From the NCBI GenBank assembly GCA_963752595.1, contig CAVVYZ010000022.1:96001-160000 (forward strand): a DNA stretch of 64,000 nt. The letters are read 5' to 3'. Shown here one piece after another: positions 21,407 to 51,063 of the stretch (position 1 is the stretch's first letter; each line of letters starts with the position of its first letter). Made by a program: the position numbers and the translations under genes. The notes under the pieces were generated by a model that was given only the letters and a program-made list of their open reading frames with translations, did no database searches and was not told the DNA's origin. The stretch is from an uncultured delta proteobacterium. Its GTDB lineage: Bacteria; Desulfobacterota; Desulfomonilia; UBA1062.

Positions 21407-21527
21407 TGATATGGCCGGTTATCGCTGAATATCTGCCTTTTATATTCCCTAATGACCAGCAAATGCATCGGATCTTATTTTATTATCTATTTTTGACATT
21501 TATTGTGCATCCTTTTTAGATCCGGAT

Positions 21528-21629
21528 CATCAAAAATATATAAAAAGAGAAACAGACCTAAAGAAGCAAACATTTAACCTCCTCTTATAGGATGGCGCGT
21601 CCTATGCCCTAACCGCCATCCTTTTTTTT
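21528..21629 (+). ncRNA. Candidate sRNA copy A (anti-SD motif plus terminator); 5' end inferred
   Basis: TTGACA at 21493 with a weak -10, then AACCTCCTCTT, a 9-bp stem AGGATGGCG/CGCCATCCT and a T run. Homologous to 40333-40386. Confidence 0.5.
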
Positions 21630-40332: not shown

Positions 40333-40488
40333 AAAAAAATAGGGATGGCGCCTGGGCAAGGGAACGGCCATCCCGAAGAGGAGGTTTTTTGCTATGAAGA
40401 TCTTTTATCGATGAGACTGAAGGACGGTTACCTCCTTATTTCGGTTTCCTCCAGTCCGGATTATATCGCTTGATATCGATTCATATGC
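40333..40488 (-). ncRNA. Candidate sigma54-dependent sRNA copy B; 5' end inferred
   Basis: No credible ORF. Ends in AACCTCCTCTT, an 8-bp stem GGGATGGC/GCCATCCC and a T run. Homologous to 21576-21629. Confidence 0.55.
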
Positions 40489-40498
40489 CCACTCATTA

Positions 40499-40514
40499 TT
40501 CAATTGGCATGCCA
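40499..40514 (-). promoter_or_regulatory. Sigma54 -24/-12-like promoter
   Basis: TGGCATGCCAATTGAA (GG-N10-GA) against consensus TGGCACG-N4-TTGC. Confidence 0.55.
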
Positions 40515-40611
40515 AACTGATCACCTGGCAGCTATCCCATTGTATTAACATTATATCCATCTTTCGATGAAGGTATTTATTGCACCAGTACGATAAACCC
40601 GGCAGGATGAA

Positions 40612-40660
40612 TGTATAATACCTATACAATCCAAGGATACACACGTATACAGAATATACA
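40612..40660. promoter_or_regulatory. Two palindromic enhancer-like (bEBP) sites
   Basis: TGTATA-N5-TATACA (40612-40628) and CGTATA-N5-TATACA (40644-40660), starts 32 bp apart. Confidence 0.6.
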
Positions 40661-40712
40661 GTTTTATGAAGCATCTTATCGAGACAGGAAGGCAAGGCCA
40701 TCATGGAGCGTT

Positions 40713-40728
40713 TGGCATGAGATTTGTT
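40713..40728 (+). promoter_or_regulatory. Second, divergent sigma54-like promoter upstream of the kinase gene
   Basis: TGGCATGAGATTTGTT (GG-N10-GT). Confidence 0.4.
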
Positions 40729-40755
40729 AATTACTCAGGCGAGAATATTCATGGA

Positions 40756-42507
40756 ATGAAAGATAAGAGTACAGACCGGAATTGGATCCGCATGTCGCCC
40801 TGGGTCATCGTGGGTGCCTTTATCGTTTTGGTGCCGATCTTCGCCTTCATGACCGTGAAGACGATCAGAACCCAGCAGGATAATATGATCATGCTGCTTC
40901 GTGAGAAAGGCGACGCCCTCATCCGGTCTTTTGAAGCCGGCACCAGGACGGGTATGGTGGGATTCAACTGGAGCTGGGTTCAGGTCCAGAGGCTTATCAT
41001 GGAAACCGCAGAGCAGCCGGATATCCTTTACATACTCATTACGGATGTACAGGGAAAGATCATTGCCCATAACCAGCCTATGCATATCGGAAAAACCCAT
41101 GGGACAGGCCTCGATCTTACGGCTGTCGGCGATAAGATCCAGTCACGCCGGATAATAAGGTCCGATGGAAAGCCCATCTTCGAAGTCTACAGAAGGTTCG
41201 TTCCCTCAAGGGGAAGACTGCTTTCTCACAGCAGTCGTATCTTACCGGAAGAATGGTTCATCAATCATATATTCCCACAGGAATTCAAACAGCCGGCTCT
41301 GACGATATTTGTCGGGCTCGATATGGATCCCATCGTGAAAACGACACGGGAAAACACCCTCCAGAGCATCCTCATAGCAGTTATACTCCTTTTGATAGGC
41401 TTTTCAGGGATTGTATCCATAATCATCGCCTACAACTACCGTATTGCGCGGATGAGCCTTTCGAGGATCAAGGCCTTCTCGGATAACATTGTGGAAAACA
41501 TCCCGGTAGGTCTTATTTTTATCGGTGAAAACCGTAAGCTCATCACCATGAACAATGCTTCTGAAGATATGCTGAAGCTCTCCTCCCAGGACATACAGAA
41601 TGAGCATGCAGAAGACATTCTTCCTCCTCAGATTAACGAGCTTTTCGATCAGGCGCTGAAGTCGCCGACCGTATTCATCAAAGAGATCGACATCCCGATC
41701 CAGGGAAAGAATATGCTGTTTGAAACCAGTACGAGCGTATTGTACGACGACAACAATATTTTTCTGGGATACATAATGCTCCTGAGGGACACCACGGAGA
41801 TCCAGCACCTGAAGAAAGAAGTGTTGAGGAAGGAACGGCTCGCGTCTCTGGGAAGCCTTGCTGCCGGAGTCGCACATGAGATAAGGAATCCTTTAAGCTC
41901 TATCAAGGGGTTTGCAACGTATTTCAAGGAACGGTACCGTGATGTGCCGGAAGACCAGAAAACCGCTGATATCATGATCAGAGAGGTTGAACGCCTCAAC
42001 AGGGTCATCAGTCAGCTTCTGGAATTTGCCAGGCCGATGAATGTGGTTCAGAAACAGGCAAGCGTGAAGGACACGATCCGTCATTCCATCGAGATGATAA
42101 AACATCAGGCCGATGCTAAGGAAATCGAGATCATTGCCGACAGCATCTCCAATGTGCCCCTTATCGCGAATATCGATCAGGATAAAATTACCCAGGTCCT
42201 GCTCAACGTCTATCTGAATGCGATAGAAGCGATGGACAGCAGGGGTGTTCTCGAAATATGGACAGAGCAGGACGAGGTAAATTCGAATATCATCGTGAAT
42301 ATCTCCGATACCGGCCAGGGGATACCGAAACAGGACCTGAGCAGGGTTTTTGATCCCTATTTCACCACGAAACAGTCAGGTACCGGCCTCGGCCTCGCCA
42401 TTGTACACAAGATCATGGAGGCCCATGCAGGTCAGGTGAAAATATCCAGCAGAGAAAGCCAGGGCACGACGGTGTCCATCATTTTGCCCTCCAGAGGAAA
42501 GGAATAA
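40756..42507 (+). CDS. ZraS/HydH-like membrane sensor histidine kinase with PAS domain
   Basis: ALIRSFEAGTRTGM (ZraS-like), two TM helices, AHEIRNPLSSIKG and DPYFTTK..GTGLGL. Confidence 0.9.
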   Translation: MKDKSTDRNWIRMSPWVIVGAFIVLVPIFAFMTVKTIRTQQDNMIMLLREKGDALIRSFEAGTRTGMVGFNWSWVQVQRLIMETAEQPDILYILITDVQGKIIAHNQPMHIGKTHGTGLDLTAVGDKIQSRRIIRSDGKPIFEVYRRFVPSRGRLLSHSSRILPEEWFINHIFPQEFKQPALTIFVGLDMDPIVKTTRENTLQSILIAVILLLIGFSGIVSIIIAYNYRIARMSLSRIKAFSDNIVENIPVGLIFIGENRKLITMNNASEDMLKLSSQDIQNEHAEDILPPQINELFDQALKSPTVFIKEIDIPIQGKNMLFETSTSVLYDDNNIFLGYIMLLRDTTEIQHLKKEVLRKERLASLGSLAAGVAHEIRNPLSSIKGFATYFKERYRDVPEDQKTADIMIREVERLNRVISQLLEFARPMNVVQKQASVKDTIRHSIEMIKHQADAKEIEIIADSISNVPLIANIDQDKITQVLLNVYLNAIEAMDSRGVLEIWTEQDEVNSNIIVNISDTGQGIPKQDLSRVFDPYFTTKQSGTGLGLAIVHKIMEAHAGQVKISSRESQGTTVSIILPSRGKE

Positions 42508-42508
42508 T

Positions 42509-43861
42509 ATGAATATAAGCAGGGACATTCTCGTCGTGGATGATGACTTGGGTCATCGCACCATGCTCAAAACACTATTGTCCGGATGGGGCTACCACGT
42601 GACGGAGGCCGATGACGGTTCGAGCGCCATCGAAACAGTCCGGAACAAGCCGTTCGATCTTATCCTGATGGATATCCGTATGGTCAAGGTATCAGGTCTT
42701 GAGGCATTGAGCGTGATCAAAAGCATAAACCCTGCCATTCCCGTCATCATCATCACCGCCTTCTCATCGGTGGAGACAGCCATCGAAGCCATGAAAAAAG
42801 GTGCTTACGAGTATCTGACAAAACCGCTCGACTTCGAAGAGATGCGCATGAAAATGGAGAAGGCCATGGATCATAACCGGCTCAAGCAGGAAAACCGCAT
42901 CCTCAGAGAAATCATCGGGGAACACTTTGATGCCCGCAACATCATCGGCAAGAGCCCTCTGATGATCCGCCTCCTCGAAACCACCTCAAAGGCTGCTTCG
43001 TCGGAAGCGACCGTTCTGATCATGGGCGAAAGCGGAACAGGCAAAGAAATGATAGCAGGAGCGATCCATTTCAACAGTTCAAGAAAAGACAACTCTTTCA
43101 TAAAGCTCAACTGTGCAGCCATTTCCGAAGGTCTCCTGGAATCGGAGCTGTTCGGACATGAAAAGGGTGCTTTTACCGGAGCTATCAGGAGGAGAGACGG
43201 ACGGTTCAGCCAGGCACATCTCGGCACCTTGTTCCTGGACGAGATAAGCGAGATGTCCATGGCCATGCAGGCGAAGCTGCTCCGGGTAATCCAGGAAAAA
43301 GAGATGACCAGGGTCGGCGGAGAAGAGGTAATTTCTGTGGATGTGAGGCTCATTGCAGCAACCAACCGGGATCTTCTCTCCCAGGTTCAGAAGGGAAATT
43401 TCAGGGAAGATCTCTACTACCGCCTCAATGTCATCACTTTGAAAGTTCCTCCGCTCAGACAGCGCCGGGAGGATATACCCCTCCTCGCAGAAAATTTCCT
43501 CAAGATGTTTTCCGAGAAGAATACAAAGCATATTAAAGGCTTCACACCTCAGGCGATGGACAGGATCATCAGGTATAACTGGCCCGGCAATGTCAGGGAG
43601 CTGATGAATACCGTTGAAAGTGCTGTGGTGCTTTCGAGTACGGATTACTTGAGCTTCGATGATCTGCCCCTGCTGCCCGATGAATTACCTGCCCAGCCGC
43701 CGGCAGGTCATTTCCCGACGGATCTGCCTCTGGATGAAGTCGAAAAGTCAACCATACTCAAAACTCTGGAGGTATCCCACGGGAATAAGAGCGAAGCTTC
43801 CCGGAGGCTCGGCATAACCCGCGCCACGCTGCATAAGAAGCTGAAGAAATACGGGGTATAA
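42509..43861 (+). CDS. ZraR/NtrC-like sigma54 response regulator
   Basis: Receiver domain, GESGTGKE, GAFTGA, WPGNVREL and Fis-type HTH. Confidence 0.95.
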   Translation: MNISRDILVVDDDLGHRTMLKTLLSGWGYHVTEADDGSSAIETVRNKPFDLILMDIRMVKVSGLEALSVIKSINPAIPVIIITAFSSVETAIEAMKKGAYEYLTKPLDFEEMRMKMEKAMDHNRLKQENRILREIIGEHFDARNIIGKSPLMIRLLETTSKAASSEATVLIMGESGTGKEMIAGAIHFNSSRKDNSFIKLNCAAISEGLLESELFGHEKGAFTGAIRRRDGRFSQAHLGTLFLDEISEMSMAMQAKLLRVIQEKEMTRVGGEEVISVDVRLIAATNRDLLSQVQKGNFREDLYYRLNVITLKVPPLRQRREDIPLLAENFLKMFSEKNTKHIKGFTPQAMDRIIRYNWPGNVRELMNTVESAVVLSSTDYLSFDDLPLLPDELPAQPPAGHFPTDLPLDEVEKSTILKTLEVSHGNKSEASRRLGITRATLHKKLKKYGV

Positions 43862-49164: not shown

Positions 49165-51063
49165 TCAATAAAACAGAGAATAGAGCATATTTACGAGATG
49201 CTTCGATTTTCCCTCTCTCGACAACCAAATATTGATCTCGGTCCTTGATGTCCTGTTCTTCCTCATCCATGCTCTGAGCTCATTGGGAAGCAGATTGATG
49301 CAGAAAAATTCGTTCCAGGAATTTATGTAGAGAATATCCACCTCCTGGATTGTGTGATAAATGTCAGGGACCTCCATATTGCCGATTATGATCATTTTTT
49401 TTAAGTATTTCTTATCCATGAGGGAATCCCTGTCCAGCCCTACGGAATTGGCATCGGGGATCAAGGTGTTCAACTCCCTCAAGAGAGCCTGGATATCCGA
49501 CAGCGATGCCCCGGAAGCATTGGGGACCATGTGTAGGGAAGTCGAGGCATCGATCCGTTTATTGTAGACCAGCCACGTCATGATCTTTACTACCCTCTCT
49601 GCACTCATGATGGGCTTCTGTTTTTTCTGCTCTGGATATACTTCATGGATAAACCATTGCTTTTTGTCGTAGGAAAAGAAGAGTTCCTCGTAGGCAGGTT
49701 CTTTTTTCTTTACCCTCTTTTCAGGATCGATCTTGCCTTCCTTGGAAACATAGAAAGCTTCGATCCTTCTCCGCAAGACTTCAATCTCGACATCCTGGTC
49801 GAGCTGGGAATTCATGAGAAAAGATTTTGCCCTTCGTATAAGGAGCACAGTTGTACGCTTGAGATAGTCATGGAGTTCGTCGCCGAATGCCCGGTATTTT
49901 TCCACGTCCCATTCATTGAAACGGTTGAGTTCGCGGAAAAATCCAATGGACCAATCCCATTTCTTTACGATTTCCACCATGAAGGCCTGCTTGTCATGCT
50001 GTCCTATGTTGAGAAGATCATTGCCGGTAATATTGGCAGATATTTTCAGATAAAAACATTTTCTGAGGAGGTCTATGGTCTTCTCGTCACCTTTGGACCG
50101 GTAGTAGTCTTCTACCCGCTGAAAGACTTCGACGTATGGATCTACTACTTCATCCTGGCCTGCTTGCAGTACATGATCCTTCACTTCTTCGCACAAGAGG
50201 GCCTTTTCCTCCGAGGGCTCGAGATATGTGGCAAGGAGCGCCATTTTAAGAACCGACTTGAGGGGATCATCGAGGGCTTTGTGCATCTGCCACAATGCGG
50301 CCCCGAGAAGCTCTTCCTCGGGTATATTGGTGATATTGCCCATATCGATAAAATCATCAATGTCAAAGTCCGCAGATTTTTTTAGGTGCTGGTTTATTGT
50401 CTCATAGGAATTGCCATCATTTCCAGGAGGAACCACCCACCACAGAGGCACCCTTCCTTCGATCAAGGTCATCGTACGGTAGAATTCCTCCTTCAGGGTA
50501 TTCTTCAATGCCGAGCCTGAGCCTTCCTGTGATACCGTGCCGAAATGGTTCTGTTGGATATCGTTGATATCCATGAGGAAGAAATGGACTTCGATGATAT
50601 ATTGGCTGGTAATCCACCTCTGAAGGAGCTTTAGTTTCCTCTCAAGCAGCCTCAGCCTGGATTTACCGATCCCCTCAGAGCTGACGACGACCCAGATATC
50701 ATAATCGGATTCCCTGGTCTGTCCAAGGCTCCCCACAGAGCCGATGGTGAAAAGACCTTCGATTTCACGATGCCTGGGCACAAGGTTCTGGACCTCTCCT
50801 ACCTTGATGCGTACGGGCAGAAATGACTCCAGGCTACTGATTGTGCTTGCAGGCCATTCCATGCACTTGACCCCTGACGGGCAATCGTTATCTCCCATAA
50901 AACCGGGTAACGCAGGATGGTTGATATGGAGGCACAGCGGAACTAGACTAAGAATGACGCGGGCTCCCAGAGGGTCATTCATCAGCATGACCTTTTTCTT
51001 ACCCCGATTATACTGCGTAAAAGTCCGGAGTCCCGCTACTAGCTTTATTTCAATATCATTCAT
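49165..51063 (-). CDS. cyaA: Class I adenylate cyclase
   Basis: GSVGSLGQTRESDYDIW, EVHFF, KEEFYRT, ALWQMHK and PLKSVLK motifs. Confidence 0.88.
   Translation of the reverse strand: MNDIEIKLVAGLRTFTQYNRGKKKVMLMNDPLGARVILSLVPLCLHINHPALPGFMGDNDCPSGVKCMEWPASTISSLESFLPVRIKVGEVQNLVPRHREIEGLFTIGSVGSLGQTRESDYDIWVVVSSEGIGKSRLRLLERKLKLLQRWITSQYIIEVHFFLMDINDIQQNHFGTVSQEGSGSALKNTLKEEFYRTMTLIEGRVPLWWVVPPGNDGNSYETINQHLKKSADFDIDDFIDMGNITNIPEEELLGAALWQMHKALDDPLKSVLKMALLATYLEPSEEKALLCEEVKDHVLQAGQDEVVDPYVEVFQRVEDYYRSKGDEKTIDLLRKCFYLKISANITGNDLLNIGQHDKQAFMVEIVKKWDWSIGFFRELNRFNEWDVEKYRAFGDELHDYLKRTTVLLIRRAKSFLMNSQLDQDVEIEVLRRRIEAFYVSKEGKIDPEKRVKKKEPAYEELFFSYDKKQWFIHEVYPEQKKQKPIMSAERVVKIMTWLVYNKRIDASTSLHMVPNASGASLSDIQALLRELNTLIPDANSVGLDRDSLMDKKYLKKMIIIGNMEVPDIYHTIQEVDILYINSWNEFFCINLLPNELRAWMRKNRTSRTEINIWLSREGKSKHLVNMLYSLFY

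Follow-up and report, generated by a model that had tools for sequence, protein, structure and literature searches.

A 64,000-nucleotide stretch of DNA from an uncultured delta proteobacterium of the class Desulfomonilia (assembly GCA_963752595.1, contig CAVVYZ010000022.1, positions 96,001 to 160,000; hereafter the window) encodes a two-component system resembling ZraS/ZraR, together with a short divergent unit predicted to yield a non-coding RNA in place of the protein ZraP. Comparison with relatives supports this RNA as a sigma54-driven non-coding output of the system, and thereby, on a sequence basis only, the circuit of sensor, enhancer-binding regulator and small RNA (sRNA) postulated in an original prediction made from the letters of the window. 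The RNA belongs to an undescribed, multi-copy family with an anti-Shine-Dalgarno (anti-SD) seed, which has likely survived the loss of its zraP host gene on at least four occasions. Its best reading would be a 3' untranslated region (3' UTR) sRNA of the CpxQ kind that has become stand-alone, serving as an OxyS-like output of the ZraSR-like system. In what follows, handles in G, L and C denote genomes (G000 being the window's own genome, 4.1 Mb), compared loci and contigs, respectively.

Probable repeated loss of zraP at orthologous loci

Kinase orthologues collected from metagenomes, genomes and the family gave 55 distinct loci, including some near-duplicate rows, 43 of which were informative. 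The 12 loci set aside are without the module described below and comprise four that are uninformative because their upstream DNA is cut off (L080, L083, L098 and L111) and eight with distant kinases of 31–47% identity (L074, L076, L077, L081, L082, L112, L113 and L149), five of which (L076, L077, L082, L112 and L113) have a zraP-like gene and no module. A zraP-like gene (PF13801) is present at 24 of the 43 informative Desulfomonilia loci and absent from 19, while a 3' module is kept at all 43, in the zraP 3' UTR of the former and with no coding region in the latter. This comparison had been set beforehand as a test by the original prediction, which offered a scar of zraP deletion as the alternative to an sRNA; the 24 loci holding the gene bear out the deletion and the remnant is conserved at 43 of 43, but the opposition of scar and sRNA does not stand.

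Within the genus, the final ~60 nt of this region are matched in 11/11 other genomes. Between minus-strand promoter and module, seven of the 12 genus members encode a ~160-aa signal-peptide PF13801 protein whose best NCBIfam match, ZraP, scores below cut-off; the other five, G000 among them, are without zraP at the locus, and no zraP-family gene stands beside the kinase in the window. Promoter and seed are 48–195 bp apart without zraP versus 559–668 bp with it, and the stop codon precedes the seed by 27–111 nt (23 zraP rows; 35–64 nt in own-clade sisters with zraP). The old GGAGG of the own clade lies 44–47 nt ahead of the seed in 6 of 7 rows and, since this resembles the sisters' stop-to-seed distance, the deletion there looks exact. 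Leaders of zraP-less loci measure 21–168 nt and are mostly unconserved, with G011 having only 21 nt from predicted start to seed. Two zraP-less loci (L072 and L101) have a long leader with a Shine-Dalgarno (SD) sequence, a ~40-codon open reading frame (ORF) and shared hairpins.

A tree of the kinases from 31 selected rows (L111 not among them), inferred quickly under LG+G4 and rooted on two zraP-carrying outgroups, requires five changes in zraP state, at least four of them on well-supported branches, and a single clade of zraP-less rows is rejected (approximately unbiased test, p-AU 4.2e-5). An earlier tree, also quick, with 8 rows left out and L111 counted as zraP-less, agrees. The coding region has thus likely been lost repeatedly, at least four times. 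By itself the kinase tree cannot decide whether zraP was gained or lost, and L144 sits on a long branch; vertical descent with losses appears simpler than gains because zraP protein groups mostly match kinase groups and distant loci have zraP without the module. Relocation of zraP was considered and rejected: PF13801 matches number two in zraP-less G000, G001 and G004 and one in G009, against three in all seven zraP-carrying genus members (zraP-less G011, also with three, is the exception), and the best PF13801 paralogue in G000 is 22% identical.

Structure and conservation of the predicted RNA

The predicted non-coding transcript of ~156 nt (40333..40488, minus strand) reads as the remains of the zraP 5' UTR fused to the 3' UTR, its start at 40488 being placed from sigma54 geometry alone. 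Fold prediction gives a leader hairpin (40414..40457, minus strand) that presents a retained zraP-type SD, GGAGGU (40437-40430), in its loop; G004 is predicted to fold alike, with other letters in the stem. Downstream follow the anti-SD seed ACCUCCUCU (40377..40385, minus strand), predicted to be single-stranded (P unpaired 1.00), and a terminator hairpin with a conserved (U/A)GCCC loop and U7 tail (40333..40374, minus strand; alignment and fold), whose arms span 40374-40342 and whose T-run occupies 40339-40333. A generic terminator scan of the window overlooked this hairpin because its loop is long. Earlier, ~155 nt devoid of a credible ORF had been placed before a terminator; the lack of an ORF holds, but the terminator lies inside the ~155 nt, not after them. 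No ORF with a usable start was found within the predicted transcript, the longest from an ATG past the promoter having 11 codons, and a 99-codon minus-strand ORF (40704-40405) that spans the promoter bears no gene-like sign.

Judging from the alignments, the working part is likely the last ~55 nt only: the ACCUCCUC seed, a 9-pair stem, the (U/A)GCCC loop and the U-tail. Seven nucleotides of the seed, ACCUCCU, are identical to the 3' anti-SD end of the G000 16S rRNA. The first 8 nt of the seed are invariant in 52/52 aligned copies, an invariance partly built in, as these copies were gathered by a pattern holding seed and stem ends; the unbiased count is the 43/43 loci reached through the kinase. 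Of the stem positions in the alignment, 94.9% of cells are paired, and double changes occur in 4 of the 9 pairs (16 cells), more than in any slid control. For zraP-less loci, module identity comes to 0.90 inside the own clade and to 0.73 when five lineages are compared, with 0.76 for the palindromes (own clade) and about 0.7 for the sigma54 box, whereas spacers, leader and downstream DNA reach 0.44–0.53 versus 0.49 for random sequence; the kinases of the compared loci are only 52–78% identical. Terminators do not carry the seed in general: of 343 terminator-like sites in G000, only 9 have ACCTCCT ahead of them, and the count for two control windows is 0. A search with Rfam 15 returned two tRNAs as the only matches in the window, a best E of 0.6 for the region and 0 matches in eight related loci. 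A second anti-SD-like motif (ACCUCCUC or CCUCUUC) occurs 10–30 nt ahead of the seed in the 3' UTRs of L004, L006, L007 and L009, and also at L134, L136 and L141.

Sensor kinase, regulator and promoters

The ZraS-like sensor kinase (583 aa; 40756..42507, plus strand) has periplasmic sCache-like, PAS, HisKA and HATPase domains according to domain and NCBIfam searches. It is followed by a ZraR-like sigma54 enhancer-binding response regulator (42509..43861, plus strand) with a receiver, an AAA+ domain with GAFTGA at 220 and a Fis-type helix-turn-helix (HTH). Counted from an upstream ATG the kinase ORF would begin at 40666; the most likely start is 40756, because the ATG at 40666 precedes the plus-strand promoter. 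The assignment to ZraS and ZraR made in the original prediction agrees with the best NCBIfam matches of both proteins, each below its cut-off (411.8 versus 479 bits and 557.9 versus 760 bits, respectively). The equivalog cut-offs of the enterobacterial ZraSR–ZraP system are reached by neither kinase nor regulator, nor by the ZraP-like proteins of relatives (57–62 versus 200 bits). By sequence, the layout is that of ZraSR-type loci, with a membrane kinase, a receiver-AAA(GAFTGA)-HTH regulator and divergent sigma54 boxes. The genome encodes rpoN, hfq and csrA; the Pfam LSM model gave no match in it and the Hfq-specific model did.

Between the divergent units lie two palindromes, both predicted regulator sites with no assigned strand. 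Palindrome 1 (40612..40628) is a perfect TGTATA-N5-TATACA and palindrome 2 (40644..40660) has one mismatch, its first letter being C, not T; of the two 17-bp palindromes originally described about three helical turns apart, the first and the spacing (32 bp, kept in relatives) are therefore confirmed and the second is not a perfect copy. The perfect sequence occurs once in the 4.1-Mb genome, as palindrome 1, and sites with at most one mismatch number 10 genome-wide, 2 of them at the locus. The two sigma54 boxes named in the original prediction were both found. A predicted -24/-12 box, TGGCATG-N4-TTGA (40500..40514, minus strand), 98 bp from palindrome 1 (~100 bp having been claimed), would be the former zraP promoter, now ahead of the predicted RNA, and TGGCATG-N4-TTGT (40713..40727, plus strand) faces the kinase gene, as in autoregulation. 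Neither two such palindromes nor two such boxes arose in 2000 dinucleotide shuffles of the intergenic region (0/2000 each), a surprise that is overstated as the patterns were drawn from the same region; conservation in relatives is the better test. A divergent box stands at the usual position at 42 of 43 module-bearing loci, the one zraP locus without a box in the searched range being L147 (G057), where ~400 extra bases separate kinase start and palindromes and a divergent box lies farther out. Both -12 elements are indeed non-canonical in sequence, but they do not mark decay: because the TTGA variant occurs divergently at 7 zraP-carrying and 6 zraP-less loci, and the kinase-facing -12 is TTGT or TTGA at 42/43, these boxes appear to be a lineage habit.

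Sibling copies of the module

Searched with a covariance model of the module, 46 of 52 family genomes give matches, 1–6 each when weak ones are included; G000 has four. One sibling copy lies elsewhere in the window (21577..21628, plus strand; 69 bits), behind a promoter-like TG(C/A)ATC-N-CATC motif that a motif scan found in common among non-zra siblings (21506..21531, plus strand). The three G000 siblings (window 21506-21628, plus strand; C1:410922-411026; C1:415457-415558) each stand behind this motif; one of them follows an APH-family kinase gene. Non-zra copies have varied gene contexts and the same seed and loop, and the motif precedes 26 of 28 full-length ones by a few tens of bases. With 4 occurrences in G000, 3 of them ahead of siblings, and 0 for the reversed control, the motif reads as a candidate alternative-sigma promoter. 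None was seen ahead of three genes for extracytoplasmic function (ECF) sigma factors that were examined. A weight-matrix scan placed the motif also at C30:5073, C22:84872, C1:398027, C30:74645 and C9:331088 of G000. One such match lies upstream of a 16S gene, and others precede what we take, by eye, to be a sigma-factor-like gene and a small MerR/CbpM-like gene; these sites may possibly form a stress regulon.

The RNA family was not met beyond Desulfomonilia family f1 among the genomes searched. A pattern search of the phylum matched 24 of 401 genomes, those outside the family without the stem and loop, and the covariance model matched 4 of 151 genomes, two of them outside the family and both weak. 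A wider class joins an A/C-rich leader and ACCUCCUC to unrelated terminator hairpins (L195-L214; G000:C14:32895, C11:16241 and C11:5678). At L197, L198, L200 and L207 such seed-hairpins lie ~50 nt behind sigma54-type boxes, and at L195 and L196 they are 3' UTRs of another PF13801 gene.

Proposed mechanism and alternative explanations

We hold it fairly probable that the regulator, bound to the shared palindromes, switches on both sigma54 promoters, and that the divergent transcript is an Hfq-type sRNA pairing with strong SD sequences. The zraP-like gene would have gone, leaving its sigma54 promoter and conserved mRNA tail. On a signal that, by likeness to ZraSR, is probably envelope or metal stress, the phosphorylated regulator would bind the palindromes and fire both promoters. 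Species with zraP would release the RNA from the mRNA 3' end, as for CpxQ, and zraP-less species would make it as a primary transcript of ~75–220 nt. Hfq would bind the U-tail, and the ACCUCCUC seed would pair with strong SD sequences and block translation in trans, repressing several mRNAs with GAGGAGGU-type ribosome-binding sites.

Several results weigh against this mechanism. The RNA is known here from sequence alone, and covariation of the terminator stem proves a hairpin, not an sRNA role; 4 of its 9 pairs hardly vary. The 40 nt ahead of the seed are at random identity (0.50). With kinase, regulator and ZraP-like proteins all below NCBIfam cut-offs, the signal can be assigned by likeness alone. 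The seed is predicted to be paired (P unpaired 0.12–0.15) at four zraP-less loci (L053, L054, L056 and L086), where masking by the retained GGAGGU could, in these folds, reflect a processing step or a cis role. A target ranking with RNAduplex over simple gene calls (3674 genes) of G000 gave best energies of -26.6 to -23 kcal/mol and no clear outlier. Its candidates, none standing out, include a DUF4412 secreted protein (C1:82925-83950; 14 contiguous pairs), a beta-CASP protein (C29:40406) and a lipoprotein (C19:3173). Signal-peptide-like genes make up 18 of the top 50 versus 25% among GGAGG genes, a marginal excess (p 0.053). Among the matches listed in pattern surveys of the family, no covariation of seed flanks with any one ribosome-binding site was seen, and one gene that recurred fitted less well in two genomes than in a third.

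The region might be a pure scar, its terminator kept to stop read-through into purM and its promoter kept since the kinase promoter shares the enhancer sites. A leader that is a plain fusion of old 5' and 3' UTRs (GGAGG 44–47 nt before the seed in 6/7 rows) and that has identity at the random level would fit, and with other PF13801 genes persisting in these genomes zraP could be dispensable. Insulation, however, needs no seed, GCCC loop or divergent sigma54 box, yet all survive at least four losses, across kinases 52–78% identical, and stand-alone siblings keep seed and loop; we therefore regard a pure scar as unlikely. It also seems distinctly unlikely to us that the RNA, though real, binds a protein instead of mRNAs, as a CsrA sponge through GGA motifs or through a reader of the GCCC loop. 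The presence of csrA, the GGAGG placed in a hairpin loop by the G000 and G004 leaders, and conserved loop letters for which no pairing partner was found speak for it. Unlike in a sponge of the CsrB/RsmY type, however, GGAGG/AGGAG is absent from 11 of 19 zraP-less leaders (none is found in those of L055, L069, L073, L075, L103-L110 and L144), and the part that never varies is an anti-SD rich in C and U, opposite in character to the GGA-type consensus of CsrA sites.

Two further explanations were weighed. As a cis switch, the seed would fold onto the SD of its own zraP mRNA, with zraP-less copies as leftovers. The zraP of the own genus does have GGAGGU, and the predicted folds of four zraP-less rows pair the seed with the GGAGGU that was kept. 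Many zraP genes, however, have AAGGAGA-type sites that fit the seed more poorly, and most zraP-less lineages and all siblings are without a coding region to control, which makes a switch very improbable in our estimation. A micropeptide, with its frame either past the retained GGAGGU or on the other strand, on which the seed becomes AGAGGAGG and then ATG (6 codons), would find some footing in a plus-strand SD-ATG at 40394 and in the short ORFs with good SDs at L072 and L101. These two ORFs are, however, frame-shifted relative to each other, five aligned own-clade genomes have no ATG past GGAGGU, and opposite-strand ORFs vary in length and sequence among copies, with no promoter shown. We give the micropeptide hardly any credence.

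Relation to known systems

Like CpxQ, the sRNA from the cpxP 3' UTR of enterobacteria, which depends on RNase E and Hfq and represses envelope proteins and cpxP (PMC6737893), the element is found in the 3' UTR of a CpxP/Spy/ZraP-superfamily gene beside a two-component system, and it shares with it a conserved seed and terminator in the 3' UTR of a PF13801 gene. It differs in phylum, in using sigma54 and a bacterial enhancer-binding protein (bEBP) instead of CpxR, in having no Rfam match, in the repeated loss of its host gene and in the existence of siblings. OxyS arose from the 3' end of a peroxidase mRNA, with one replacement inferred in the ancestor of Enterobacteriaceae (10.1101/2021.10.18.464853). 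As described there, a gene divergent from its regulator was replaced by its own 3' end with the regulator sites kept; here likewise some lineages have a protein gene at the locus where their sisters have nothing but its 3' end. Where OxyS used coding sequence and UTR, only the UTR is kept here, and at least four changes fall within one family, with both states within genera.

The promoter layout is that of ZraSR-ZraP in Salmonella and E. coli, in which a kinase and a bEBP are served by divergent sigma54 promoters for zraSR and zraP (PMC4987338), and the best NCBIfam matches are ZraS, ZraR and ZraP; an extra PAS domain, its own palindrome, the absence of zraP and scores below cut-off set the present system apart. 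Response regulators of the sigma54 type that drive sRNAs are on record for GlrR-GlmY (PMC4987338) and, in Desulfovibrio, for DVU0679-Dv_sRNA2, whose function is unknown (PMC3333781). The available text of these two papers states no origin from a deleted host gene; GlmY, unlike the RNA as proposed here, is a protein decoy, and the RNA of the locus has no Rfam likeness to either. The cuckoo/alpha-r14/NfeR1 RNAs share an ultraconserved CCUCCUC-type anti-SD seed, many predicted mRNA targets and several copies per genome (PMC10746234; PMC4615179). Those alphaproteobacterial RNAs, however, hold CCUCCUCCC in the loops of 2–4 hairpins, whereas the present RNA has one ACCUCCUC, on the 5' side of its single terminator hairpin, and the element does not fall within that family. 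A literature search, with supplements and subscription papers outside it, gave no description of this RNA or of a zraP 3' UTR sRNA and no sRNA paper for the class Desulfomonilia, and a term search in 10.64898/2026.09.15.751765 gave no match.

For Desulfomonilia as a whole, we see about even chances that the ZraSR-like system has, as its indispensable output, an undescribed anti-SD sRNA family and not a chaperone, and that siblings under an alternative sigma factor feed a second stress pathway. How regulatory networks acquire new sRNAs is not settled, and for OxyS, the best-known case, a single event has been inferred. If the present reading is true, the independent sheddings of zraP, at least four in number, would amount to natural experiments, run in replicate, on how a 3' UTR gives rise to a stand-alone sRNA. 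The state before (zraP and tail) and the state after (tail alone) coexist in several genera, and the route could be compared across replicates given four or more changes and leaders cut down to 21–168 nt. A further implication is that an mRNA of the ZraP family can, as with cpxP, include an RNA part that persists after the protein is gone, and Desulfomonilia would gain an sRNA family absent from Rfam. The whole circuit of kinase, regulator, sites and RNA takes up ~3.5 kb, so that a test in a laboratory host is feasible.

Other features

Downstream of the RNA, a TTGACT...TATAGT element before purM (~40226-40200, minus strand) recurs in relatives and is likely purM's own promoter. Elsewhere in G000, an ECF sigma factor, a putative anti-sigma factor and a PF13801 gene share one operon (L205, G000:C5:41877-43495) with no seed module after it. 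L136 (G024:C61:10691-10984) has a tandem duplicate of the module across an N gap, which may be an assembly artefact. The window also encodes a 632-aa ORF (49165-51063, plus strand) that, by eye, we take to resemble a class I adenylate cyclase.

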